A stretch of DNA of 64,000 bases from Pseudobacteriovorax antillogorgiicola. Its GTDB lineage: Bacteria > Bdellovibrionota_B > Oligoflexia > Oligoflexales > RGVZ01. The position numbers and the translations under genes were made by a program. The stretch covers positions 329,201-393,200 of the forward strand of contig CAMBEK010000001.1 in the NCBI GenBank assembly GCA_945865565.1, given 5' to 3'. The notes below the pieces were generated by a model. The model was not told the origin of the DNA, did no database searches, and was given only the letters and a program-made list of their open reading frames with translations. Below, one piece after another: positions 36,201 to 47,989 of this stretch. The first letter of the stretch is position 1. The number at the start of each line of letters is the position of its first letter.

Positions 36201-36835
36201 GGATTGTCCTCATTCGGTGGATAGATGTCGATGATGGCGCCGCGTGGTGCGTAGGTGCCCTCCTCCTCGACAGAATGAACCTTGCGGTAGCCAAGGTCTT
36301 CGAGCTTGCTAAAGAGTTCGTCTTGGTCGACCTCTTGATTGAGCTTTAACTCAACGGAGGCTTCGCGAAACTCTCCTGGCGAGATTGTTGATTGGGCAAG
36401 GGCCTGAAGGGTTGTGACGAGGATCGATGGGATATCTGTCCGCGCCAGCAGGTCCATTGCATAGACTCTCTGTCGACGGGACAAGTCCGGATTGATGTAG
36501 CGGTCTGCGCCCCAGCCCGAGAAATACGGCAGGACTGCCGCCCGAAGTGTGGGTGATGAACTCGCATCTCGCTTTGCATTGAGTGCTCCCACGGCCTGGT
36601 CCAGAAATTGGGACCACTGGCCGACGTCCTTAGATTCCGGCACGACCACGATCAGACGACGGTCTTTTGGATGCTGGCAAATAAGCCCAAGCACGGCCAG
36701 TTGGATCAAACTGTCCGATGCGCCCGTCACTTGAATGATGGGAGAATGCTGTGCCACGGCTTTGGCGTCAGAGGTGGGCGCAAGTCCCATTTCTGCATGC
36801 GTTAAAAACGAGTGAAGGCCGTAGACTGCGGTCAA
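33233..36835 (-). CDS. mfd: Transcription-repair coupling factor
   Basis: CarD-like RID (VVHVQHGIGRY), CGDVGFGKTEVA, IDEEQRFGV, TATPIPRTL, QLYQIRGRVGR, DLEIRGAGNLLG. Confidence 0.97.
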   Translation of the reverse strand: MTAVYGLHSFLTHAEMGLAPTSDAKAVAQHSPIIQVTGASDSLIQLAVLGLICQHPKDRRLIVVVPESKDVGQWSQFLDQAVGALNAKRDASSSPTLRAAVLPYFSGWGADRYINPDLSRRQRVYAMDLLARTDIPSILVTTLQALAQSTISPGEFREASVELKLNQEVDQDELFSKLEDLGYRKVHSVEEEGTYAPRGAIIDIYPPNEDNPARLEFLGDTIVSMRHFDAKDQKSTGSMTALIIRPTAEFTTPVNKKREQTQDLYNCLVDQPVATSDRDGIMQSFALGIRPSGFDMFAPLMRRNRRATAVDYIQQNDLLVFPRPRSSCYSSYKDFFEEIAEAWQRDIEAKRPSMEPEQHFTPLEKMSFENLSLIEFGNPFSDPAAITLRFESRMVLEGSPVFSKENPVELFDQWVDAIRSVLKKEEGSVAILAHHEEQLDRISNLLSHRGLAPQRRESLLRDVLAGKMESGSIALGLGDMQSHVWLQDTNTLVLPEHAMFGVKKRRPKPPSAKLQNYLSSFRDLKPGDLVVHVQHGIGRYTGMMTMNVAGLTNDFLVLEYSGNDKIYMPVDRLNLLQRYSSGGEGGRGTVDRLGSQVWEKKKSRIKSEIKDMAESLLKLQAARELAGAHRYNPPGDDYFKLEAEFPYEETEDQQKAIDDVFADIVGEKSMDRLVCGDVGFGKTEVALRAAMRAVLEGDQVLILVPTTILCYQHFRTFSDRLSRHGVKVGQVNRFVDAKTTKANLDALSRGDLDILVGTHRLLSKDIKPKRLGLLVIDEEQRFGVVHKEKLKQLRANAHVLTLTATPIPRTLHMSMLGLRDISIIATPPQERLSVKTYICRFDESLIRDAILNEVARGGQVFFLHNRVEDIEEMRLFIKSLVPGIDVRTAHGQMKEHQLEEVIIDFMEQKFPVLICTTIIESGIDMPNVNTLIVNRAENFGLAQLYQIRGRVGRSSMQAYAYFLTAAEDTLTDDAKKRLEVLSAHQELGAGFQIASYDLEIRGAGNLLGGDQSGKISEIGLELYTDMLETAIAELRGQEVVEKIDTEIKLPVTALIPASYIEAENLRLPLYKSLFSATTEEDLLRLKRETIDRFGPLPDDLARLFRVATLKRCLSQAKMTSLAVGGRNFYELKFGTLNEAQIDAILDAVRTHPDKYRLTPDGKLFLYAQTFAQPAPAQQDQMIAELVTLVDPLAEAISQRN

Positions 36836-38013
36836 ACGTAATGTCCCTTGTTGATCTTTTCGAGGATGATCTTTTCTGCCATTTGCGGGTCGCGAGGATC
36901 AACTGAATAGAAGGCCTGCTGTTCGCATCGTCTCTTGTTGTTGATCAGCCAATGCAAAATCTCGGCAAGACCCTTGTTCTTTTTATCCTTGAAGAACGGA
37001 TCGTTTGCGAGGGCGTCACGCGCCTTTTTTAGAGCCCGAATTTCATGGGGGTCTCTTTCATTCACCGGGTAGTCGTTGAGGTCATATTTTTTGATGTCCT
37101 GAGGCAACACTCCCAGAAACCGAACGTCTGGCGCTGAAAAATCCGAATTCCGGATCAATGATGCTGCGGACCCAGCCTTCAGCGTGCGGAAGATGTTTTG
37201 CATCGTATAAGCGTCAAGGTCGCCGAAAAAGTAGATTGGCACTGCCAGCTGATCTTGAATGCGTTTGACCCAGCCGCGCACGGCGTTAGAGGGAACGCCC
37301 TGGGCACCAACGACAATCGAGTTGTGGCGCTTTACGAAACCATTGGCGACCAAGGTGTTTGCAGTGCCCTCGGATTCCACGACAAGGCAGAAGTCGATTT
37401 TTTTCTTGGCCTTGAGCGTCAGGTTCTGCGGACGGTTTTTTGGTTGAAAGGGCGAAGTTCCAAGTTGGGAAAGGTCAATCACGGCCTCCGTGCCATCTGG
37501 CATCCGCTCGGTCACGATAAGATTTTGGCTGTAAGTCTGACCGCCGCGGTCGTTGGCAAAGCAGTTCATCTCTTCACGGTAGCATTCAAGCATTTCACAG
37601 ATAAAATCCACGACGGAATCAGACTCGTCCTGATCTGTAAAATCCAGAGCCTTCAGATTTTTACTGTGTTTTACCTCACCCTTGCTGATGTAGTAGAGCT
37701 CGCGTTTGGTGTTGACGTTTCCGGTCTCGATGTTGCGCAGTAGAATTTCCAGCATAAACACGGCGCGCGACATTTTTTTGACAGAACTGACATTGAGCTC
37801 GGTCGAGACCCGTTTGGATCCCGGCGTGAGAAAGCCGACTTTGCTGTTGTAGATGGAATTATCGAGGGCGCATTTTGTCGCAGTAAGTTTGGGACGCCTG
37901 CCGCTCTCAAGATCTTTCAGCATTTTTTCGCACAGCTCAAGGCTGTGTTCGAGAATGACTTTGTCTTCTTTACTTTTGCGGTGGGGGTTGCCGCCAGTCG
38001 TGCGTGTGGCCAT
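36832..38013 (-). CDS. top6A: DNA topoisomerase VI subunit A (Spo11-like)
   Basis: TKRELYY catalytic-Tyr motif, TOPRIM VVESEG and FGDLDAY. Confidence 0.92.
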   Translation of the reverse strand: MATRTTGGNPHRKSKEDKVILEHSLELCEKMLKDLESGRRPKLTATKCALDNSIYNSKVGFLTPGSKRVSTELNVSSVKKMSRAVFMLEILLRNIETGNVNTKRELYYISKGEVKHSKNLKALDFTDQDESDSVVDFICEMLECYREEMNCFANDRGGQTYSQNLIVTERMPDGTEAVIDLSQLGTSPFQPKNRPQNLTLKAKKKIDFCLVVESEGTANTLVANGFVKRHNSIVVGAQGVPSNAVRGWVKRIQDQLAVPIYFFGDLDAYTMQNIFRTLKAGSAASLIRNSDFSAPDVRFLGVLPQDIKKYDLNDYPVNERDPHEIRALKKARDALANDPFFKDKKNKGLAEILHWLINNKRRCEQQAFYSVDPRDPQMAEKIILEKINKGHYV

Positions 38014-38025
38014 AGGTGACTCCTG

Positions 38026-39867
38026 TTACTTCTTGGCGGTTTTTTTAACCGGCTTGGCAGCGGGTTTTGTTTTGTTTTTAGCTGTGGTTTTTGTCTTGGA
38101 AGTCACGACGGCAATATCACCATCGGTGTCCTCTGCGATGGCGTCTCCGGCGGCTTCGGCCTCCGCAGCGGCGATTTTTTGCGCCTCGCGCGATTCCATC
38201 TCCATGTCTTCTTCGCGGAACATTTTGATCCTGTGGCGTTTTGCGTCCAAAGCATCGCTTTGCTCTCTTGCGACCTTGAGGGCCTTTTCGCTGTCAATGG
38301 CATCGCGACCCAAAAGTTTACGCAGGCCTTCTGTGGCGTCAACGCGGCGCTTTTCATCGGCTTTGGTCAGGCGAATGAGCCCGTCGATCAGGATCGGACC
38401 AAACTGCTCGATGTGGGCGATTTTCGTTTCGTGATCGTTGGCGCGGCTTTCGCGGTTGATGTGTCGGGATAGCTTCTGGCCGGCTTGCATCAATGCCCGC
38501 CGAATTTCCTCAACGAGTTCATCCGAGGCATCGATGGTTTCTTTGGATGCGTTCTTGAACTTGATGAAAGGGGAAACCATGCTGACTGCCACGATGTATG
38601 GACCCTGGGGCAGCGCGTCTCGTGGCTGCTTGATTCCATAGGAGCGCCAGTTGACGGTCGTGATTGCTTTCACGATGGCGCAGGCCGCCTTGTCAAACTG
38701 CAGGGGCACGCGGTTGGCAAAGCGAAGAACCTGAACTGATTCGTCGTTGTTTTCTCCGCGGCGGTCTTTCAAACGTGCAACAGCCACTTCAATCTGAACT
38801 GGCTTGAAGTCGCAGATGCAAGGTTTGCGGCTGATGACTGAAAAGAAATCTACGTCACCAAGGCGTTGGATGCTGAGTGACAGGGCTTCCTCACCAATGG
38901 ACATGACCGACTGGGTCGAGGGTGGCTGGAGCTGGGCGTTTTGGATTGCCGCGTAAATTCCGCTCAGATCTTTTTCATTCAGTCCGTCGGCACTTTTGTC
39001 GAGAAGTGCCTTCGGGAGTTTTTGTCCTTTCCAGATCTCGGCGATTGACTTGTCGTTCAGGCGAGAGAAGCCTTGTTTTAGCCAATTTCCGGTTTTTATT
39101 TTCCCAAAGAGTCGGGCATGGGAAATGAATTCGCCGAGTTTCATGGTGTGCGGGTGTGGTTCGATGGCTTCCGGGATTTCTGGGACGTCCTTCGTGACCC
39201 GCTCAATCCTGGTCGTGCCGCTTTCAGGCAGCGTGTAGGTAATGCTCATGTGCGGGTTGACCAAGACATTGCCCCGCAAGTAGTTCACGAGACCAGCCTC
39301 ACCGTTGAGTTGAACGCGGCCATCAATCAGAAATTCGACGGCAGTCCCCGAAGGGCGGTCCCAGTCGACTGTTTCTTTTTCACGGATGATGCCTTTGTTG
39401 TGTTTGATGTCGACTTCGACCAGGCACTTTACGGCCTTTTTCTGGCCCTTGGTTTTCGTGGTTACGGAGACACCTCTGGCCGTAGTTTGAATGGCCCATG
39501 TCGTTGCCGCCGAAATGCCGATGCCCTGTTGCCCGCGGGAGCAACGCCCCCGGCCAAATTTTGACGATGCCAGGTATTCGCCAAAGACCTTCGCAATGTC
39601 GCCGGGGTCTATCCCAGGCCCATTGTCCTCGACCCGTATCCGGATGCGGTCCGTGTTTTTCAGTGAGCCATTGCCGACTTTTTCCACGGAGACGTTCAAG
39701 TCGGGGGCGATGCCGTGGTCCTCACAGGCGTCGAGGGCGTTGTCCAGCGCCTCTTTGACGGTGGTCAAAACGGCCTTGGTCGGCGATGAAAAACCAACCT
39801 GCTGCAGGTTTTTGGAAAAATATTCAGCGGTGCTGCTGGTGGTGATTTGTCTGGTTGGCTTTGCCAT
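38026..39867 (-). CDS. top6B: DNA topoisomerase VI subunit B
   Basis: GHKL KEALDNALDA, EDNGPGI, SSKF..SRGQQGIGISAA; transducer RFANRVPL. Confidence 0.95.
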   Translation of the reverse strand: MAKPTRQITTSSTAEYFSKNLQQVGFSSPTKAVLTTVKEALDNALDACEDHGIAPDLNVSVEKVGNGSLKNTDRIRIRVEDNGPGIDPGDIAKVFGEYLASSKFGRGRCSRGQQGIGISAATTWAIQTTARGVSVTTKTKGQKKAVKCLVEVDIKHNKGIIREKETVDWDRPSGTAVEFLIDGRVQLNGEAGLVNYLRGNVLVNPHMSITYTLPESGTTRIERVTKDVPEIPEAIEPHPHTMKLGEFISHARLFGKIKTGNWLKQGFSRLNDKSIAEIWKGQKLPKALLDKSADGLNEKDLSGIYAAIQNAQLQPPSTQSVMSIGEEALSLSIQRLGDVDFFSVISRKPCICDFKPVQIEVAVARLKDRRGENNDESVQVLRFANRVPLQFDKAACAIVKAITTVNWRSYGIKQPRDALPQGPYIVAVSMVSPFIKFKNASKETIDASDELVEEIRRALMQAGQKLSRHINRESRANDHETKIAHIEQFGPILIDGLIRLTKADEKRRVDATEGLRKLLGRDAIDSEKALKVAREQSDALDAKRHRIKMFREEDMEMESREAQKIAAAEAEAAGDAIAEDTDGDIAVVTSKTKTTAKNKTKPAAKPVKKTAKK

Positions 39868-39913
39868 AAAGTTCCTCGTACTCGTAAAATGCTTCCGACC
39901 CGGTACACTGGAA

Positions 39914-39944
39914 TGAAGGTGGCGTGATTAGTGCGCCACCTTCA
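39914..39944. other. 11-bp perfect inverted repeat in the divergent intergenic region
   Basis: TGAAGGTGGCG-N9-CGCCACCTTCA; no poly-T on either side. Confidence 0.7.
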
Positions 39945-39973
39945 ATGTCCGGGGGACGGGAGACTACCAAACC

Positions 39974-40972
39974 ATGTTGGACCAAAAAACCGTTAATCTT
40001 GAAACTGATTTTACCCGCGATGCAAAGATAGCCTACCCGATTATTTGCGGAGCCATGTACCCCTGCAGCAATCCAGAGCTCGTTGCAGCCGCTTCCGAGG
40101 CGGGTGGAATCGGTATTATCCAACCGATATCATTGGTTTATGTGCACGGATGGGATTTTCGCGAAGGCGTCCGCCACATCCGTTCCTTGACCTCGAAACC
40201 CGTCGGGTTCAACCTTCTGATCGAAAAATCGTCCAAGCGCTATGAAGACCGGATGAAGGCCTGGTTGGATATCGCCCTAGAAGAAGGTGTTCGTTTTTTC
40301 ATCACCGCCCTTGGCAATCCACGCTGGGTGGTTGACCGGGTGAAGCCCTTGGGTGGAGTCGTCTACCACGATGTCGTCAACCGGAAGTGGGCCGAGAAGG
40401 CCCTCGAGGGCGGAATCGACGGGCTCATCTGTGTGAACGATCGCGCCGGTGGGCACCTGGGCGCGGAAAGTCCCGAACGGCTCGTGGAGACGCTTCGTGA
40501 TTTCGGCAAGCCCCTGATCTGTGCAGGAGGCATTGGCAACGAACAGGACTTCGCCAGGGCCCTTAAAATGGGTTACGCCGGGGTTCAGATGGGGACCCGG
40601 TTCATTGCTGTGACCGAATGCAAGACCCACCAGGACTACAAAGACGCGATTCTGAAGGCGACTTCCGCCGACATTGTGGCCACCGACAAGATCAGCGGCG
40701 TGCCAGTATCGGTCATCAATACGCCCTTTATCGCTCGTATGGGCCTTCGTGCTGGTCCGGTTGCGCGGTGGTTGCTCAAAAACTCGCGCACCAAGCACTG
40801 GATGCGCATGTTTTACACGTTGAAGTCGATCTGGCAGCTGAAGCGTTCTCTGCAAAAAGGTTCGGCCTACAAGGACTTTTGGCAGGCAGGAAAAAGCGTC
40901 GACGGCATCGATAAAATCGAGACTGCCGGCGCCATCATTGCGCGGTTCGTGGAGTTTGCAAAAAAGGGGTAG
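39974..40972 (+). CDS. Nitronate monooxygenase / FabK-like flavin oxidoreductase
   Basis: PII.GAM, LVAAASEAGGIG, AGGH, AGGIG, GVQMGTRF. Confidence 0.85.
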   Translation: MLDQKTVNLETDFTRDAKIAYPIICGAMYPCSNPELVAAASEAGGIGIIQPISLVYVHGWDFREGVRHIRSLTSKPVGFNLLIEKSSKRYEDRMKAWLDIALEEGVRFFITALGNPRWVVDRVKPLGGVVYHDVVNRKWAEKALEGGIDGLICVNDRAGGHLGAESPERLVETLRDFGKPLICAGGIGNEQDFARALKMGYAGVQMGTRFIAVTECKTHQDYKDAILKATSADIVATDKISGVPVSVINTPFIARMGLRAGPVARWLLKNSRTKHWMRMFYTLKSIWQLKRSLQKGSAYKDFWQAGKSVDGIDKIETAGAIIARFVEFAKKG

Positions 40973-41026
40973 ATGGTTTTGGGCCTAACCCCGACGAATG
41001 CGGCGCAAAGTCACGCCCAATGAACT

Positions 41027-43240
41027 TCAGCGTGATTTGTTCATCAGGGATTCAAGGCGATTGCCTGCCGCACGGCAGCGCAGCATTTGTTCGACCTTTT
41101 CAACAATGACGCTGCCGGCTTCGACCGCCGGAGTTCCCGCCTCGTAGATGTTTGACAGGACGGAATATTCGAACTGTATGTCAACGTTACCGCTAAACTT
41201 GGCCGCCTGAAGCTGATCGTCTTTATCAAGCAGATGATAAACCAGATAGGCAGACAAACTTCGTGAGGCAAGGGCGCTTCCGCCGGGCCTTTCCCCAATT
41301 AAAAGGATCACACAACGCGCGCCGAGAGCCTTGGCAATGGGCTCAGCTAGTTTCACCCGGCCGTATGGCGCAAGGATATGCCGGCCGAGCTTAAAGCCAT
41401 GGGCCTTCAAACCTGAAAGGAGTACGGGGAAAATGTCCTCGAGATTGTGATGCACCGCATCGGCGCTGAGTCCATCGGAAACGACAATTTGAATATCGGT
41501 ATGTTCTGGAGTCAACTGCACTGCATTTTCGCTGTCGATGGCAAGTCCCGGTTCGGCACCGAAATCCGGATGATTCAGATGACTAGCCTTGTCGAGGGCT
41601 TTGGTTTTTACGATGCGAAAGTCAGCGACGCTGCTTAAACGGGCGAGATCGAGTTCGCTTTGAATGGCCTCGCGTCCGACAGCTTGATGCCGACGAATTT
41701 CCCGAGTTATGTCATTCGTCGGTCGCGGCCCCGCATGGTCCTTGGGTAGAAAGCCGGGAACGCTCGGTGTTACCCGAAGTAGATCGTCGAGTTCTGCGTT
41801 TGATTGACAGAACATGCGCGGGTTACCCCAGTTTTCGCCGCGCACGAGATGGCCATCGGCATTACGCCGGAAGATTCCGCGATCCAACGCCCAAACAAGA
41901 TAGTCGGGAGCAGGCTCCTTGTCGTAAATTTCGCGCAGGGTCTGGTTGTCGTGACCGCTCGTATCAAAATAGGCGAGCATGCGGTCCGTATTCAAACAAA
42001 CGTCCATGAAAAAATTGGCGCCCGCTGCGGTCAGCATTTCAGTTGCCATCTGCTGGCCTTCGAGTCCGATTTTAGAATGGAGCGTGTAGCAGGGAGCCAT
42101 TCCCATCGGCAGCCCAAGAAGCTTGCCCATGAAATGATCCTGCAGGTTGGCGGCGATCATTTCGAAGTTATCAAGGTGTGTTTCTGGTCCGATGAATCCA
42201 GTTACATTGTTGACCATGAAGGGATCGTAGCGCCGAGCAAGTCCGTAACACAGCGCTTCGGCGGTTGTCATGTCCATGCCGTTGTGTTTTCCGTAAGTAA
42301 ATTCGCTGCCTTGCCCCGTCTCAAGATACATGAATTGCTTGGCCTCGGACCCCAAGGCACCTTTTTTCTGCATGGCCCCCCACGCGAGATCCAGCAGTTC
42401 CACCGAGATGTCAAATTCGGTGAGATTACTGCGTTCCGTTCCAGCAAGGCTTTGAAACATGATTTCAACCGGCGCGCCGCGTTCCAAACATGCCATCTGT
42501 GTTTTTAAATGCCCGAGCACGCAAATCTGTGTCGGTGCCTTTGTATGGCGGCGGATCTTGTCCAGATGAACGAGAATGGCAGAAATATTTTCGACGGTAT
42601 CAACGGCCGGGTTGACCCCAATCAGGGCGTCCCCAGAGCCTACCGAAAGACCCAAGTAAGTCAGGCAGGTGATCCCGCGCAAATCATCGGTTGGGTGATT
42701 GGGTTGCAGGCGCGAGGCCAAGGTCTTGCGAAGCCCAATCCGGGTGCGTGCCTTGGTGATGTGTTCAATTTTTCGCGCAACGTAAATCAACTCATGGATG
42801 TCCATGATTTTTGCCAAGGCGGCAGCCATAACGCCGGTCAAGCCGCGGCCAATGCGTTTAATCGCAGCACCCTCGCTGCGAAGCAGGAGGTTTTTAACGT
42901 CACCAATACTAAGGGCCGCAATTTCGGCAAAGGCATCAGGGTCGATGGCGTAGTTGACCCGCATGACCGAATCGACCAGACCCGCATCGTCGGTCAACGG
43001 GCGATCAAAAAGATGTTGCACGGTCAATGAGGACAAAATGGTGCGCGCCGCCTCGCGTTCGACCTCCGATGGCGCCGCCAGTCCGGCATTGCGATCTCCG
43101 GCCTTGCTGATGTCGGCAGCACCGAGAAGTTTTTTGAGTCCAAGAAAGCTGTGCTCCAAACCGTTGAAGTTCAAACGATACCATTCGTCTGGTTTCGGCG
43201 TTGGAACCTGAATTTCCGCAAGGGGCGTCAATTTTATCAT
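41027..43240 (-). CDS. eutBC: Fused ethanolamine ammonia-lyase-like protein, EutB (large) plus EutC (small) in one ORF
   Basis: EutB motifs SRLQPNHPTDD, GDALIGVNP, YLETGQGS, GFIGPE, DHFMGKL; EutC motifs VVSDGLS, GRV, LIGERPG, SLSAY, SNI..GTP..EA; no stop between them. Confidence 0.9.
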   Translation of the reverse strand: MIKLTPLAEIQVPTPKPDEWYRLNFNGLEHSFLGLKKLLGAADISKAGDRNAGLAAPSEVEREAARTILSSLTVQHLFDRPLTDDAGLVDSVMRVNYAIDPDAFAEIAALSIGDVKNLLLRSEGAAIKRIGRGLTGVMAAALAKIMDIHELIYVARKIEHITKARTRIGLRKTLASRLQPNHPTDDLRGITCLTYLGLSVGSGDALIGVNPAVDTVENISAILVHLDKIRRHTKAPTQICVLGHLKTQMACLERGAPVEIMFQSLAGTERSNLTEFDISVELLDLAWGAMQKKGALGSEAKQFMYLETGQGSEFTYGKHNGMDMTTAEALCYGLARRYDPFMVNNVTGFIGPETHLDNFEMIAANLQDHFMGKLLGLPMGMAPCYTLHSKIGLEGQQMATEMLTAAGANFFMDVCLNTDRMLAYFDTSGHDNQTLREIYDKEPAPDYLVWALDRGIFRRNADGHLVRGENWGNPRMFCQSNAELDDLLRVTPSVPGFLPKDHAGPRPTNDITREIRRHQAVGREAIQSELDLARLSSVADFRIVKTKALDKASHLNHPDFGAEPGLAIDSENAVQLTPEHTDIQIVVSDGLSADAVHHNLEDIFPVLLSGLKAHGFKLGRHILAPYGRVKLAEPIAKALGARCVILLIGERPGGSALASRSLSAYLVYHLLDKDDQLQAAKFSGNVDIQFEYSVLSNIYEAGTPAVEAGSVIVEKVEQMLRCRAAGNRLESLMNKSR

Positions 43241-43250
43241 GAATGATTTC

Positions 43251-44669
43251 CTACATTCCGTAAAAGGAGACCGGAATAATCTGATGGGTGATCCTGCCGA
43301 TGTTGACGAAGTTTGCGGCGCGCAGAGAAACTTCATCGATAACAACGAGACGGAATGGGTCGCGCCCCCAGGAGGTGATGAGTGCACCTAGGGATTTGCC
43401 GACATTTCCATTTAACAATAGCACTAGGGTCCTGTCGCGAGGATAGCCCGAATTCCGAAGTGCATTTGTAATAACTGTGCTGAACCTTTGAACCTCTTCA
43501 GCACCAGTTATCTTGCCATCGACTTGAATGGCGCAGCCGATGCTTGATTTTGCCGCAAGTTCCAGAAGTTTGATGATGGAGGCAGCGGTCGTGTCCGGAG
43601 AAATCCGCCCGACCACAGGTAAGTCCCTGAGGGGCAGGATTGATTCGTCTGGAAGGTAAACCGTAGTCCCGGAGACTTCGGTGTTGTAAAGGGCCAACCC
43701 AAAGGCAGTGGCCCGGCCCATGTTTTTTGGGACATGGTTTTTTAGCGAGGATGAAATCCAGTCGTCCGCAACGAGCTTAAGCGCCAAATCCCAACCCAGA
43801 TCGCCAAAGGGTGTGACTGCAGCAGGTGATTCGCCTGCCATCGCCCGGTAAACCAGCTCACCGACACCACCCGAGACTGTGATGGTCACTGCCGCTTGGT
43901 TTGCCGTATTGAACAGATCAGGGGGCAGCGAAAAAGGGACCTGTTCGTGGAGTGCCTCGCAATCATTGCGATCAAGGGATTTTCCTGCGAGCGTCTGGTG
44001 GATCAGAGCCAGATAAAAATCAACGATGCTGTCGACCTCTGGCCTTGAAAGGCTGTCGCCAATACTTTTTGCCAATCCAAGATGGGAAAAAAGATGCTTC
44101 GCATAGGGTGACAGGGCCTCGATCCGGTAGGTGCCTGGCGTCACTCGCACATGGCGCGCACCGACAAATAAACAACCCGTACCGCGAACTTCGCCGTTCA
44201 CGCCAAAAGCCATGTTGGTGGTGCCACCGCCAATGTCCAGGTTGATGATGGCCTGGTCAGTAAGCTCTCGGGACAATTCTCGTGCACTTCCCATAAATGC
44301 CAGCCAGGATTCAAGAGATGGATCGTTGGCCGTTGCAACCACCGCATCGCCAATGCGTGCGCGAATCAGGGATGCAATCGCACTGGCATTTTCTTTTTGG
44401 GCTGCAAGGCCAGTGATAATGGCGCCTCCGGCCGAGGCATCTTCTGGGTGGATGTTCGCGGCCACGAGCCAGGCGTCGATGTACCCGGCAAGTGCGGCTT
44501 CATCGATGCGGTCGCCAACGTAGGGTGTGTATCTTGGTTCAGCGGCAAAAAACACTACGGGCGAGGCATATTCCATCACGCCCGTGATCCCATTCTTTAC
44601 GACCTTTGCGCGCGCAAACACGGCGCTGCTCGTGGTCGTTCCGAAATCGAATCCTGCCATGATGATCAT
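43251..44669 (-). CDS. eutA: Ethanolamine ammonia-lyase reactivating factor EutA
   Basis: GFDFGTTT, GAIITG.AAQKENA, V.ATA.P.LES, NLDIGGGTTN, CLFVGAR, SGGV, FGDLG, RAT, IDE. Confidence 0.9.
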   Translation of the reverse strand: MIIMAGFDFGTTTSSAVFARAKVVKNGITGVMEYASPVVFFAAEPRYTPYVGDRIDEAALAGYIDAWLVAANIHPEDASAGGAIITGLAAQKENASAIASLIRARIGDAVVATANDPSLESWLAFMGSARELSRELTDQAIINLDIGGGTTNMAFGVNGEVRGTGCLFVGARHVRVTPGTYRIEALSPYAKHLFSHLGLAKSIGDSLSRPEVDSIVDFYLALIHQTLAGKSLDRNDCEALHEQVPFSLPPDLFNTANQAAVTITVSGGVGELVYRAMAGESPAAVTPFGDLGWDLALKLVADDWISSSLKNHVPKNMGRATAFGLALYNTEVSGTTVYLPDESILPLRDLPVVGRISPDTTAASIIKLLELAAKSSIGCAIQVDGKITGAEEVQRFSTVITNALRNSGYPRDRTLVLLLNGNVGKSLGALITSWGRDPFRLVVIDEVSLRAANFVNIGRITHQIIPVSFYGM

Positions 44670-44675
44670 TGGTGC

Positions 44676-45494
44676 TCAGGCCTTTGGCGGTTCATGGTCA
44701 GCGACGGTAGAGGTGTCGTTCGGATTGAGGTTGGGATCATCTAGGCTTGTTTCAGTCAGCGCCTCGTCAATGGTCCGGCGCTGGTCGAAGACAAAGCAAC
44801 TGCCCTGGTAGAGGGACTTGCCACTTGGTGTCCCATCCGCATTTTTGTGATGCTTAAGGTATTTGATGATGCCGCCATCGATTTGGAACACGTTTTTGAA
44901 ACCGCGGGCGTTTGCCCAAGGGACCGCCTTTTCGCAGCGGATTCCGCCGGTGCAGAAAAAAACGTAAGTCTGGTCTTGATCTTCGCCAAAGCGGTTTAGA
45001 AAAGCCTCGGGGAAATCCTTGAAGCGCTTGAGACCCAGGTCAACAGCCCCTTCGAAGTGGCCGCATTCGTATTCGTAGTCGTTGCGGGTATCGACCAAGA
45101 CCACGTTTTTGCCTTTCTCGGTCATGAAAAGATCAAATTCGGCAGGGCTCAGGCGTGGGGCTGCGAGAATCTCGTTGATGTCCGGGTCGTCTTCGCCAGC
45201 GAACGTCACCACTGATTTTTTTACTTTAACTTCCAGCCACTTGTAGGGAAGGCTTGTGCCCGTGGTCCATTTTGCTTCGAGGTTGCTCAAGCCGGGGTGG
45301 ATCACCCCCAAGGAGGTAATAAATTTGGCCAGGGATTCGGGGCAGGTGCCAGCCAAGCCAGCGTTGATGCCTTCATGACCGAGCAAAACGGTGCCACTCA
45401 GGCCAAGGGCACTGGCTCCTGCTTCAATAGCAGCTTTGACCTCCGCCGGGTTTTCCAGGCGGACAAACCGGTAAAAATTGGCGATGGTAATCAT
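44676..45494 (-). CDS. trhO: TrhO/UPF0176 rhodanese-domain protein (tRNA U34 hydroxylase-like)
   Basis: FYRF, G.VLL..EGIN, DTRNDYE...GHF.GA, CTGGIRCEKA, GGIIKY, G.CFVFD.R. Confidence 0.8.
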   Translation of the reverse strand: MITIANFYRFVRLENPAEVKAAIEAGASALGLSGTVLLGHEGINAGLAGTCPESLAKFITSLGVIHPGLSNLEAKWTTGTSLPYKWLEVKVKKSVVTFAGEDDPDINEILAAPRLSPAEFDLFMTEKGKNVVLVDTRNDYEYECGHFEGAVDLGLKRFKDFPEAFLNRFGEDQDQTYVFFCTGGIRCEKAVPWANARGFKNVFQIDGGIIKYLKHHKNADGTPSGKSLYQGSCFVFDQRRTIDEALTETSLDDPNLNPNDTSTVADHEPPKA

Positions 45495-45495
45495 G

Positions 45496-45545
45496 GGCTG
45501 AGTCCCCCTTCCGAGGCCATTCGGGGGGAAAACTCCCCGTCAGCC
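45496..45545 (-). promoter_or_regulatory. Structured 5' leader overlapping the RBS of the trhO-eutA-eutBC run
   Basis: mRNA GGCUGA-C-GGGGA-GUUU-UCCCC-CCGA-AUGGCC-UCGG-AAGGGGGAC-UCAGCC-C-AUG can form alternative stems. Confidence 0.35.
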
Positions 45546-45665
45546 GCCACATACCGCGGTTGCGCCAATAGTTCTAGTCCGTTATGACATGAGAGTCGTC
45601 GTTCGCGCCCCGCCATCGAATATGGGGCGGGGGCTGAGTCCACACCGCTGTTGCAGGAGTCCCTT

Positions 45666-46376
45666 GTGAATCTGTCGATTTTCGGAAACGTCGGAATTTA
45701 CTATCTGGTCAAATGGTTCCATTTCATTTTCGGGATCATTTGGATCGGTCATCTTTACTACTTTAATTTCACCCAGATGCCGTCTTTTGCCGAGATGGAT
45801 GGGCCGACCAAGTCCAACAACATTCAAAAGCTCGTGCCCCGTGCCCTCTGGTGGTTTCGTTGGGGCGCCATGTTTACCTTTATTACCGGCGTGATCATGC
45901 TCGGCATGTACGGCCACATGAACGGCCACGAGGTTTACAAGACGTCTTGGGGCGTAAACATCATGACCGGATCGGCCTTGGGCACCCTGATGTTCCTGAA
46001 TGTCTGGCTGGTGATCTGGCCCGCGCAGCAAGTCGTGATTGCTTCGACCACCGCCGTGGCCAAGGGGCAGCCGGCATTACCTGAGGCAGCCGCAGCCGGT
46101 GCTCGCGCCATGCTGGCATCACGCACGAACACCCTGTTTTCTATTCCAATGCTCTTTTTCATGGGTGCCGCATCGCATTTACCCCTTCAGGTCGGCCCTG
46201 ACGCAAGCCTCGGCTTGCTGACGTTGGTTTTGGCACTGGTTCTTGGCGCGATCGAATGGAATGCAGTCAAGGGCTCAAAGCTTGGCCCATTGGCAACAGT
46301 CAAGGGCGTGATTCATGTTGGTGTTGTTCTGACCGTGGTGTTGTACCTCCTGGTCGAGGTCATGGTGCGTGTCTGA
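45666..46376 (+). CDS. PuuD-like (Urate_ox_N family) integral membrane protein without a fused cytochrome c
   Basis: KWFH..GIIWIG.LYYFNF, ALWWFRWGA.FT..TG, NVWLVIWP.Q, ASRTN..FSIPMLFFM; AGGAG RBS before GTG 45666. Confidence 0.75.
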   Translation: MNLSIFGNVGIYYLVKWFHFIFGIIWIGHLYYFNFTQMPSFAEMDGPTKSNNIQKLVPRALWWFRWGAMFTFITGVIMLGMYGHMNGHEVYKTSWGVNIMTGSALGTLMFLNVWLVIWPAQQVVIASTTAVAKGQPALPEAAAAGARAMLASRTNTLFSIPMLFFMGAASHLPLQVGPDASLGLLTLVLALVLGAIEWNAVKGSKLGPLATVKGVIHVGVVLTVVLYLLVEVMVRV

Positions 46377-46749
46377 TCGCCGATTTATTTTAGCAGTTTT
46401 GACAGCGGTGGTTGGCCTTGCGGCTGGCTGCCGCTGTTCTTCGTCGAATCCGACTTCGGCATCTGTTTCGATTCCGCCTTCGAGCCCAAACTCGATTTCG
46501 ACTCTGATTTCCCGCGGAAAATCTGTTTACGCAGGAAATTGCATCGCCTGCCACAATCCAAATCCAAAATTGGCTGGAACCGTCGGCCCGGAAATTTATG
46601 GAAGTTCTATCGAGCTCCTCGAGGTAAAACTGGTAAAGGGGACCTACCCCGAGGGTTATAAACCCAAGCGCCCCGGTGCGGGGATGCCTGTTTTTCCACA
46701 TCTCGCCGGCGATATCGCGGCCCTTCACGCTTTCTTGAACGCGCCCTGA
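46369..46749 (+). CDS. Monoheme cytochrome c lipoprotein
   Basis: LAAGC lipobox, RGKSVY..NCIACH, distal MP; overlaps the upstream gene. Confidence 0.85.
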   Translation: MSDRRFILAVLTAVVGLAAGCRCSSSNPTSASVSIPPSSPNSISTLISRGKSVYAGNCIACHNPNPKLAGTVGPEIYGSSIELLEVKLVKGTYPEGYKPKRPGAGMPVFPHLAGDIAALHAFLNAP

Positions 46750-46783: not shown

Positions 46784-47989
46784 TTAGAGTAAAGCTGCAA
46801 GGTCGATCAGAACGCGCTCGCTCAGAAGCAGACGTGTTCTGTTTATTTGAAGCGCGTCGTTGGCGGCGGGAAGTTGGTCGGATGGATACGTCCGCTTGAT
46901 TGACTGGCTTTTGGACGTCAAGGTCATGGTTGGTACGCCGGCGTCGTGGCGCAGAAGGATATCAATGCAGTCTTTGGGAGAGGGGAGAGGATTCTTCGGC
47001 TGCGCCTCAGAATGACGGGGCTGCTCAGGATGACGGGGCTGCTCAGAATGACGGGGCTGAGCCTCACGAGGGAGGAATTCGGAAGTCAAAGAAAACGGAA
47101 TTCCCAGGGGGCGCAGCAATTCTGCAAGACGCCCGGCGAGGATGCCGGCCGTGATGGAGTCATGCAGCGTGATGTTCATGGCGGTGCGGTTTGTGCTTAA
47201 ATTGGCCTTCAGCGCCATCAGTGGGTCAGCGCCGCCGCGCGCAATGCAAACAGGATCGAGAGCCTTGTCGAGTCGATCTAAAAACGGCCGGGATTTTACT
47301 TCGTGGCCTTTTGGTACCCATACTTTCACATGAACGATTGGAGCCGAGGCGCGGTAGCCAAGCAGGAGTTGGCTGCCTTTCATGATGGTTTCCACTTGCT
47401 CGGCGAGGGTGGATTCGGGAACCCCAAGGCACGCCCAAGTGTGCAGTCCTGGTTTTCCACTTTCTAACGCGAGATCCTGGAATTCTTTTTGAAGGTGATC
47501 ATTCCAAATGCCCTGCAGTTCTCGCGGTGGTCCGGGAAGGACCGTAATCTGTGCGTTGCGGACGGTTAGGGAGAATCCGTTGGCAGAACCCTGCGAATTC
47601 AGAAGGATGCGCGAGCCTTGCGGGAAAAAGCATTGTTGACGGTTTGATTCTGGGGCCGCGCGCCCCATGTTCTGAAACCGTTCGGCAATCCGGTCCCACG
47701 ATGGCTGGTCAAAGAAAGTTTTTAACTCCGCCCATTCTGTGATGACGTCACGGGTAAAATCGTCCGTCGTTGGCCCGAGTCCGCCGATGGTCAAAATAAA
47801 ATTGGCGCGGGCCGTGGCAAAGTCGAGGGCATCCGAAATGGCCGTGCGTTCGTCGGGGACTGCCAGATGCAAGAGCACTTCAATGCCGCAGGCGTCGAGG
47901 TTCGCGGCAAGCCAGGAGGCGTTGGTGTTGAGGATCTCGCCGCTGGCGACTTCACTGCCAATGGCGATTATGGCTACCTTTGGTGTCAT
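46784..47989 (-). CDS. cinA: CinA-like protein: intact MoCF-type N-terminal domain, degenerate PncC C-terminal domain
   Basis: IGSEV..G.ILNTNA, GGLGPTTDDFTR, LPGPPREL, GVPES; C-terminal DSITAG replaces ESCTGG. Confidence 0.8.
   Translation of the reverse strand: MTPKVAIIAIGSEVASGEILNTNASWLAANLDACGIEVLLHLAVPDERTAISDALDFATARANFILTIGGLGPTTDDFTRDVITEWAELKTFFDQPSWDRIAERFQNMGRAAPESNRQQCFFPQGSRILLNSQGSANGFSLTVRNAQITVLPGPPRELQGIWNDHLQKEFQDLALESGKPGLHTWACLGVPESTLAEQVETIMKGSQLLLGYRASAPIVHVKVWVPKGHEVKSRPFLDRLDKALDPVCIARGGADPLMALKANLSTNRTAMNITLHDSITAGILAGRLAELLRPLGIPFSLTSEFLPREAQPRHSEQPRHPEQPRHSEAQPKNPLPSPKDCIDILLRHDAGVPTMTLTSKSQSIKRTYPSDQLPAANDALQINRTRLLLSERVLIDLAALL
46989..47059 (-). repeat. CGTC-tagged REP-like palindrome plus 3x18-bp tandem repeat, in frame within cinA
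   Basis: CTCAG(A/G)ATGACGGGGCTG at 47006, 47024 and 47042; minus strand CGTCATTCTGAGGCGCAGCCGAAGAATCC; encodes QPRHSE-QPRHPE-QPRHSE-AQPKNP. Confidence 0.8.

Follow-up and report, generated by a model that had tools for sequence, protein, structure and literature searches.

Can an enzyme of the ethanolamine ammonia-lyase (EAL) family that has lost the aspartate presumed to contact the substrate amine still be an ethanolamine lyase? The question is raised by eutBC*, a gene for a 737-aa EutB-EutC fusion that lies at 41027..43240 (stop codon included) on the reverse strand of a 64,000-nt stretch of DNA from Pseudobacteriovorax antillogorgiicola (GenBank assembly GCA_945865565.1, contig CAMBEK010000001.1, positions 329,201 to 393,200), here called the window. 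EAL is a textbook B12 radical enzyme, and only for the enterobacterial enzyme are the residues of the active site known to have been defined. An initial annotation of the window had proposed that either the amine-binding carboxylate had migrated in this protein or the protein belonged to a distinct subfamily of adenosylcobalamin (AdoCbl)-dependent lyases for another amino alcohol or a related substrate. We firmly place eutBC* as a non-compartmentalised enzyme of the EAL fold, serviced by a EutA-type reactivase. It belongs to an old subfamily of wide distribution, here denoted class B, in which one wall of the pocket has been rebuilt.

A fused EutB-EutC protein with an altered pocket wall

Both EAL subunits were found in one chain. 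Pfam placed EutB (456 bits) in stretch 80-509 and, behind it, EutC (149 bits) in stretch 551-778 of the mechanical open reading frame, which spans 41027..43387 on the reverse strand, encodes 786 aa and opens at a GTG at 43387. Translation probably begins with the ATG at 43240, because this codon lies 10 nt past the stop codon of the upstream gene eutA*, has AGGAAA ahead of it and gives a protein of 737 aa, a length like that of the homologues (724-746 aa). Counted from this ATG, the EutB domain, a TIM-barrel with the substrate and adenosyl site, covers residues ~31-460 (41861..43150, reverse strand; Pfam PF06751, phmmer matches to 3abo_A and 2qez_A). The EutC domain, which forms the lower face for cobalamin, covers residues ~502-729 (41054..41737, reverse strand; Pfam PF05985) and was matched by phmmer to residues 46-259 of 3any_B (E 2.4e-30); the N-terminal region preceding residue 46 of this crystallised E. 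coli chain is missing from eutBC*. Scores against the curated NCBIfam models were under the cut-offs for both EutB (NF011649, 439.2 bits with a cut-off of 554) and EutC (NF003971, 140.9 bits with a cut-off of 230). The upstream gene eutA* (43251..44669, reverse strand) encodes a divergent EutA-type reactivase of 472 aa, which scored 218.7 bits against Pfam EutA and 175 against the NCBIfam EutA models, far under their cut-off of 598. An AlphaFold2 model of eutBC* built from 36 sequences (predicted local distance difference test, pLDDT, 89; predicted template-modelling score, pTM, 0.87) was matched by Foldseek to 3abo_A with a template-modelling (TM) score of 0.95 and a root-mean-square deviation of 1.9 A, and to 3abo_B with a TM score of 0.79.

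The alignment of eutBC* with E. coli EutB (3abo_A; phmmer E 2.2e-87) was gapless across the pocket region and agreed with the residue equivalences, which were taken from hmmalign against the EutB of E. coli K-12 in its annotated genome (L103). Identity was 171/426 aligned columns (40%). The pocket residues kept in eutBC* were (E. coli = window) R160=R177, Q162=Q179, N193=N210, E287=E307, F329=F349, M392=M412 and L402=L422, and the equivalents of R177, N210, E307 and Q179 were invariant in two alignments of homologues. We take Arg160, Asn193 and Glu287 to hold the hydroxyl side of the substrate in E. coli EutB (Gln162 is presumed to have a role as well), Phe329, Met392 and Leu402 to pack against the two substrate carbons, and Asp362 to contact the substrate amine; residues of the kept set would also drive the radical chemistry. 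These ligand roles reportedly go back to Shibata et al. 2010 and Mori et al. 2014.

The changes lie elsewhere in the pocket. The E. coli residues Tyr334-Leu335-Tyr336 are replaced by Thr354-His355-Leu356 (codons 42173..42181), Cys361 by Met381, the amine ligand Asp362 by Ala382 (codon GCT, 42095..42097), Cys363 by Pro383, Asn367 by Leu387 (codon 42080..42082, polar to hydrophobic), Ile391 by Phe411, Gly393 by Asp413 (codon GAC, 42002..42004), Asn403 by Ala423, Gln405 by Phe425 and Thr406 by Asp426 (codon GAT, 41963..41965), all read on the reverse strand. The initial annotation had identified the same alanine and aspartate codons, had placed the new aspartate next to the pocket methionine Met392 and had noted that GPEYLY becomes GPETHL; both alignments bear out this reading. 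We also looked by alignment for Asp362 in a shifted register, and this is not the case. In the model, DSSP placed Thr354/His355 in the loop past strand 342-346, Ala382 as the first residue past strand 379-381, Asp413 at the end of strand 410-413, adjoining the kept Met412, and Asp426 in the loop that follows. From these positions, the four sites would line three adjacent strands of the barrel on their catalytic face.

We scanned eutBC* and the best 120 of about 5,500 homologues for the altered motifs. These 120 proteins were 64-99% identical to eutBC*, and all were EutB-EutC fusions with the same motifs. Of the resulting 121 proteins, 104 had M-A-P...T-L, one had M-G-P and 16 failed the regular expression. 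The M-D pair at 392-393 was found in 114 of the 121, with M-E in two and a failed pattern in five. The altered motifs are thus not due to chance. The nearest relatives came from metagenome-assembled genomes (MAGs) of Oligoflexales and Pseudobacteriovorax.

Four conserved pocket types in the EutB family

To place these residues within the family, we compared 50%-identity cluster representatives (the best 150 of 1,324 matches at E <= 0.001) together with 95 loci from genomes and metagenomes. The pockets could be grouped into four classes, written here in E. coli numbering for positions 334-336, 361-363, 367, 393 and 403-406. The canonical class A reads Y-L-Y, C/V-D-x, N, G and N-Y-Q-T/S, and class B, which contains eutBC*, reads T-H-x, M-A-P, L, D and A-Y-F-D. 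Class C, with V-F-K/R, L-D-I/V, x, A and S/G-Y-L-T, consists of long fusions, and class D reads T-L/I-Y, M/I-A-P, N, G and S/N-Y-Q-D. The aspartate at 393, the histidine at 335 and the leucine at 367 were specific to class B; the threonine at 334 was common to class D, and the aspartate at 406 covaried with alanine at 362 in classes B and D.

We counted the combinations at 334/362/393/406 in 401 unique sequences with residues at all four positions; this set was gathered by searches aimed at classes B and D, and its proportions carry no meaning. T-A-D-D was found in 160 sequences, T-A-G-D in 126, Y-D-G-S/T/C in 74, V-D-A-T in 10 and T-S-D-V in four, and the remainder had scattered other combinations. 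Across classes, the tightest partners of 362 were 334 and 406, not 393: Ala362 pairs with Thr334 and Asp406, and Asp362 pairs with Tyr (or Val) at 334 and a non-acidic residue (T/S/C) at 406. Two class B sequences, from Pelomyxa schiedti (P0125) and from locus L032, keep Asp362, and their residue at 406 is Asn or Ser. The expectation that 362A and 393D covary thus held within class B only, since class D has Ala362 without Asp393. If the carboxylate has migrated, as the initial annotation suggested, the case for 406 as its new position is no weaker than that for 393. Asp426 (406) and Thr354/His355 are conserved as a set with Ala382 and Asp413.

We considered whether Ala362 is unique to class B and rejected this on account of the 126 class D sequences with T-A-G-D. 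The class D loci encode microcompartment (BMC) shell proteins, EutQ, EutP, EutH, EutA and an ANTAR response regulator with a histidine kinase. As Ala362 occurs in such BMC-type eut loci, the loss of Asp362 alone is no argument for a new substrate, and Asp362 is not a defining residue of the whole EutB family. Named relatives of class D are found among Clostridia and Desulfobacterota (Desulfosporosinus, Sporomusa, Thermincola, Clostridium bowmanii, Desulfoluna and others), and further examples are the metagenome loci L035, L037, L038, L039, L043, L044, L053 and L072 and the proteins P0274-P0393. We know of no class D member that has been assayed. In one class D BMC locus (L037:5226-8018), eutA is followed by an APH-family phosphotransferase gene and an MttB-family (trimethylamine-methyltransferase-like) gene, an arrangement that hints at a link of this eut locus to methylated amines.

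Several members depart from the common architecture. The Pelomyxa protein, named ethanolamine ammonia-lyase at NCBI and attributed to an anaerobic amoeba, is 1144 aa long, has ~470 additional N-terminal residues without a Pfam match, and combines the kept Asp362 with Asp393 already present. The class C fusions P0179, P0189, P0201, P0211, P0217, P0224, P0227 and P0237 have Val334-Phe335, Asp362 and Ala393 and are 690-1110 aa long; in one of the class C proteins, the presence of two C2 domains points to a eukaryotic origin. Within class B, a subclade (L018, L031 and L033) has Ser362, His404 and Val406 and keeps Asp393.

Class B was observed in Bdellovibrionota, Planctomycetota, Myxococcota, Proteobacteria and Desulfobacterota. 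A sample of 401 Planctomycetota genomes contained two class B matches, one of them already known, and named plasmids contained one, in Methylocystis sp. MJC1, which had no informative neighbours and no EutA. The EutB of Clostridium butyricum was canonical and accompanied by the eat permease.

Class B and its reactivase form separate lineages

We constructed a midpoint-rooted tree of EutB with 15 pocket columns masked. A long stem leads to class B, which formed one clade with the Pelomyxa protein as its basal branch; class C lay outside the remaining classes, and class D branched as a grade from the base of the canonical sequences. Of the two options in the initial annotation, the distinct subfamily as such is borne out: class B is a discrete, conserved and monophyletic group and not a sporadic variant. 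The EutA proteins encoded beside class B also formed one clade, and the root separates it from the EutA proteins beside canonical or class D EutB, among them that of E. coli. The two matching clades show that lyase and reactivase have diverged as one module.

Neighbouring genes were tallied with local hidden Markov models built from Pfam-verified seeds and compared by Fisher tests. The class B column comprises 29 class B loci and L025, which has both forms; flank lengths vary, so absences are soft. A EutA gene adjoined class B in 24/30 loci, as in the window (43251-44669), and canonical EutB in 15/57 (p 3e-6).

Genomic context of class B loci

BMC shell genes were found in none of the 30 class B loci vs 10 of the 57 canonical loci (p 0.013). 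The same holds for the genome of the window (G000; 2.5 Mb, 90% complete), where no match to the BMC domain PF00936 was detected. Neither of the marks of a Eut microcompartment, shell proteins and a EutC encapsulation peptide, was thus seen, the EutC part of eutBC* aligning only from residue 46. EutH adjoined class B in two of 30 loci, with the order EutH, EutA, EutBC* in L022 and within a mixed operon in L025, and canonical EutB in five of 57. Aldehyde dehydrogenase genes were present in 6/30 class B loci vs 3/57 canonical loci, and genes for a glutamine-synthetase (GS)-like ligase in 6/30 vs 0/57 (p 0.001).

The transporters also differed. All eight APC permeases beside class B had TIGR00907, which we take to be an amino acid/choline transporter family, as their best match, each under its cut-off, and none matched the ethanolamine permease model TIGR00908 best. 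Beside canonical EutB, 11 permeases were of TIGR00908 (seven over the cut-off), three of TIGR00907 and one GadC-like. This contrast had a Fisher p of 0.001, or 0.011 with the Burkholderiales loci collapsed. In Desulfospira joergensenii DSM 10085 (L012), eutA*-eutBC* is immediately preceded by an OpuAC-type (betaine/choline-type) ABC transporter. TRAP DctPQM genes and a GntR regulator were located downstream of the class B gene in a Desulfopila MAG and in L031, which also carries ornithine-cyclodeaminase-family and octopine-dehydrogenase-family genes. Both loci belong to the Ser362/His404/Val406 subclade, in which TRAP transporters with a GntR regulator were found at L018 and L031. As this subclade is the TRAP-linked one, the residues at 362, 404 and 406 shift together with the transporter class.

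Two lineages have amine-conjugating genes nearby. Five Burkholderiales loci (L008-L011 and L027) share a conserved ten-gene cluster around eutA*-eutBC*, which encodes a permease, a glycerol-3-phosphate-oxidase-like flavoprotein, a Pyr_redox_2 protein, a glycerol-kinase-like FGGY kinase and EutA, then EutBC*, the GS-like ligase, an iron-type alcohol dehydrogenase (Fe-ADH), a Peptidase_C26 hydrolase and an aldehyde dehydrogenase. The ligase, Fe-ADH, C26 hydrolase and aldehyde dehydrogenase make up a complete Puu-like gamma-glutamylation set, and no gene of the cluster reached the curated cut-off of its closest NCBIfam model. In a Hyphomicrobium MAG, a separate Glu_synthase-domain gene and a TIGR03105-type ligase gene (664.8 bits, over the cut-off) are followed ~12 nt later by EutBC*; this contig is short, and no EutA was found on it. 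The Hyphomicrobium arrangement is presumably that of the N-methylglutamate/methylamine pathway.

A canonical EutB was co-resident in five of 16 class B genomes (G000, G011, G012, G014 and, as a partial gene, G013). In the window's genome it is encoded on contig C3 (L003:8902-13606) as split eutB (474 aa, 704 bits) and eutC (255 aa). Ahead of this pair lie msrA, a small unknown ORF and an APC permease whose best NCBIfam match was an L-type amino-acid transporter, not an ethanolamine permease; no eutA was found beside the pair in the 20-kb stretch. In the metagenome locus L025 (3531-12475) both forms occur in one operon, Aldedh-EutH-EutA-EutBC*(class B)-EutB(canonical)-EutC, with a divergent sigma-54 activator upstream. 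We considered whether class B always comes with a canonical paralogue and rejected this, as 11 of the 16 genomes had class B alone.

Chemistry and substrate of eutBC*

The chemistry of eutBC* is very probably that of EAL, because the residues on the hydroxyl and radical side are all intact. We propose that the window encodes a module of two genes, with eutA* as a dedicated reactivase and eutBC* as a fused, cytosolic, AdoCbl-dependent amino-alcohol lyase. The adenosyl radical would take a hydrogen from the carbinol carbon of the substrate, the protonated amine on the neighbouring carbon would migrate or be eliminated, and an aldehyde would be released at the end of the reaction. What may differ is the subsite of the leaving group. 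The class B pocket wall on barrel strands 6-8 has been rebuilt in a coordinated, subfamily-wide way, with D362A, the new Asp393, Asp406 and His335, the exchange of Asn367/Asn403/Gln405 for Leu/Ala/Phe, and an aromatic residue for Ile391. The loss of hydrogen-bonding side chains (Asp362, Asn367, Asn403 and Gln405) and the gain of two carboxylates, a histidine and aromatic or hydrophobic residues would be expected for a bulkier, less hydrogen-bonding cationic leaving group. Such a refitted subsite would hold the amine with fewer hydrogen bonds, more room, and electrostatic or cation-pi contacts.

That the physiological specificity of class B differs from that of canonical EAL has about an even chance, and the evidence from gene context, though mixed, leans towards a difference. 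A difference is suggested because the kept residues are those of the hydroxyl and skeleton side, with the changes concentrated around 362, presumably the amine ligand, and because class B is monophyletic on a long stem even with the pocket masked and is matched by its EutA clade. It is further suggested by the canonical EutBC co-resident in five of 16 genomes, once in the same operon, by the consistent absence of ethanolamine-type permeases beside class B and the diversity of its transporters, by the amine-conjugating genes nearby in two lineages, by the OpuAC-type transporter in Desulfospira joergensenii, and by the changes at 362, 404 and 406 that go along with the transporter class. If the specificity is indeed altered, N-substituted ethanolamines are a tentative choice of substrate. 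Our best guess is an N-substituted 2-aminoethanol, from which acetaldehyde would be released along with the matching substituted amine and not with ammonia. N-methyl- or N,N-dimethyl-ethanolamine and choline would qualify, as would diethanolamine or another hydroxyethyl-amine, and ethanolamine may remain as a side substrate. In its full form, this proposal is put forward with reserve: class B EutBC* would be an oxygen-tolerant B12-dependent lyase that converts N-alkylated ethanolamines to acetaldehyde and a methylated or substituted amine, and the TRAP-linked Ser362/His404 subclade would be tuned to other N-substituents.

A number of observations weigh against an altered specificity, and several of them fit class B as an orthodox EAL (EC 4.3.1.7), fused, microcompartment-free and EutA-dependent, in which the carboxylate moved from 362 to 406 and/or 393 and the rest is the drift of an old lineage. 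This is quite possible, though short of an even chance. The first-shell residues other than 362 are all kept, and Ala362 with Asp406 also occurs in the class D EutB of classical BMC-type eut loci. A member of the ethanolamine facilitator family, EutH, is encoded beside class B in L022 and L025, and the L025 operon is flanked by an aldehyde dehydrogenase and a sigma-54 activator; the Fe-ADH and aldehyde dehydrogenase of the Burkholderiales are as expected for the disposal of acetaldehyde. No other EutB was found in 11 of the 16 class B genomes, although MAG incompleteness may hide some, so in most hosts class B could simply be the ethanolamine lyase. Several of the hosts are predatory lineages that would meet phosphatidylethanolamine, and every source that gives class B a name calls it ethanolamine ammonia-lyase; we found no biochemical data for any class B member. 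As to context, eutA* is the only informative neighbour in the window, no TIGR03105-type ligase over the cut-off was found in the 90%-complete genome, TIGR00907-type permeases also adjoin three canonical EutB genes, the association with the GS-like ligase comes from two independent lineages (p 0.096 with the five Burkholderiales loci collapsed), and every context association rests on few independent lineages. In the model, the pocket segments have the lowest confidence of the EutB part (pLDDT 72-81). On the other hand, co-residence with canonical EutBC in five genomes, once in the same operon, is hard to square with isofunctional enzymes. An orthodox EAL would also have to account for the lack of a TIGR00908 permease beside class B (0/8), for the class-specific Asp393, His335 and polar-to-hydrophobic changes, none of which occurs in class D, and for scores under the curated NCBIfam cut-offs for EutB and EutC.

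A substrate substituted on carbon rather than on nitrogen is improbable. Class B would then be an AdoCbl lyase releasing ammonia and a ketone or longer aldehyde from a vicinal amino alcohol such as 1-amino-2-propanol, 3-amino-1,2-propanediol or serinol, 2-hydroxyputrescine, 5-hydroxylysine or a 4-amino-3-hydroxybutyrate/carnitine-type acid. The diverse transporters would suit such compounds, among them the TRAP systems (usually acid carriers) of L018 and L031 and the OpuAC-type ABC transporter of L012, as would the glycerol-kinase-like FGGY kinase and glycerol-3-phosphate-oxidase-like flavoprotein of the Burkholderiales cluster, whose Puu-like gamma-glutamylation set would fit a hydroxylated di-amine. 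However, the residues that we presume to pack the carbons and hold the hydroxyl (equivalents of Phe329, Met392, Leu402, Arg160, Asn193 and Glu287) are unchanged, the changes surround the position of the amine ligand, and no context is common to more than two lineages. That eutBC* is a catalytically dead or regulatory EAL-like protein is very improbable, even with the substrate ligand Asp362 lost, given that proteins from five phyla conserve the equivalents of the catalytic Glu287 and Arg160 together with the barrel and the EutC domain. A dedicated reactivase, found in 24 of the 30 loci, is sensible only for an enzyme that turns over AdoCbl, and a PduO-type adenosyltransferase is encoded in the window's genome, 24 kb from eutBC*.

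Other features of the window

Upstream of eutA* lies a rhodanese/UPF0176 gene, and downstream of eutBC* a convergent NMO-family gene. An Rfam scan of 39500-46500 detected no riboswitch or other RNA, and a scan for promoters and terminators found nothing over the shuffled expectation. Adjacent genes at 36832-39867 (reverse strand) encode topoisomerase VI subunits A (TP6A_N and Toprim) and B (HATPase and Topo-VIb transducer). Bacteria seldom have this enzyme; here, the C-terminal tail of subunit B is rich in lysine and alanine. A CinA/MoCF_biosynth-domain protein encoded at 46784-47989 (reverse strand) carries a short proline/histidine/glutamine-rich tandem repeat near residues 300-330.

Implications and comparison with known systems

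The EutB family comprises at least four conserved pocket types, and thousands of proteins named "ethanolamine ammonia-lyase" belong to pocket types of which no member is known to have been assayed. If class B releases substituted amines, this would be a new reaction for B12 enzymology and would correct a widespread annotation. It would change how the turnover of head groups (choline, methyl-ethanolamine) and the production of methylamines are inferred from metagenomes, and it would add a second route, independent of radical-SAM and glycyl-radical enzymes, from phospholipid head groups to methylamines or trimethylamine in aerobic soil and freshwater bacteria. If class B is instead an ordinary EAL, it would be a natural experiment in which the amine-binding carboxylate proves movable between barrel strands, useful for mechanistic work. 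Our literature search, which left subscription papers and supplements outside, found no paper on the fused subfamily, its pocket, or a EutB homologue with another specificity. The available passages of an mBio review and of Ravcheev 2019 do not mention the class B variant.

Among known systems, two are analogues of the N-substituted reading by net reaction only. The choline trimethylamine-lyase CutC, as we understand it, is a glycyl radical enzyme that would have a like net reaction if this reading is right; unlike eutBC*, it is oxygen-sensitive, and its fold and cofactor are unrelated. Corrinoid-dependent cleavage of triethanolamine, with a net reaction like that of the N-substituted reading, has reportedly been seen in an Acetobacterium strain; to our knowledge, the enzyme was never identified. 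The diol/glycerol dehydratases PduCDE/DhaB are closer in build, being AdoCbl eliminases with a TIM-barrel large subunit and a dedicated reactivase, as in the eutBC* module. Foldseek matched them to the eutBC* model with E about 1e-9, a TM score of 0.37-0.39 on the query and 15-18% identity. They differ from eutBC* in their subunit set, their Ca/K-dependent diol site and the lack of amine chemistry.

Within the EutB family, class D shares Thr334, M/I-A-P at 361-363 and Asp406 with class B. However, it keeps Gly393, Asn367 and Gln405, lacks His335, has split EutB and EutC in a BMC-type locus, and branches at the base of the canonical clade and not with class B. The nearest characterised system, the EutBC of E. 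coli and Salmonella (EC 4.3.1.7; PDB 3ABO), has the same two domains, fold and kept residues as eutBC* and a reactivase of the same EutA family. From this enzyme, eutBC* differs by its fusion into one chain, the changes in its pocket, its sub-cut-off scores, the separate clade of its EutA, and a context free of microcompartment genes, both across the 30 class B loci and in its own genome.

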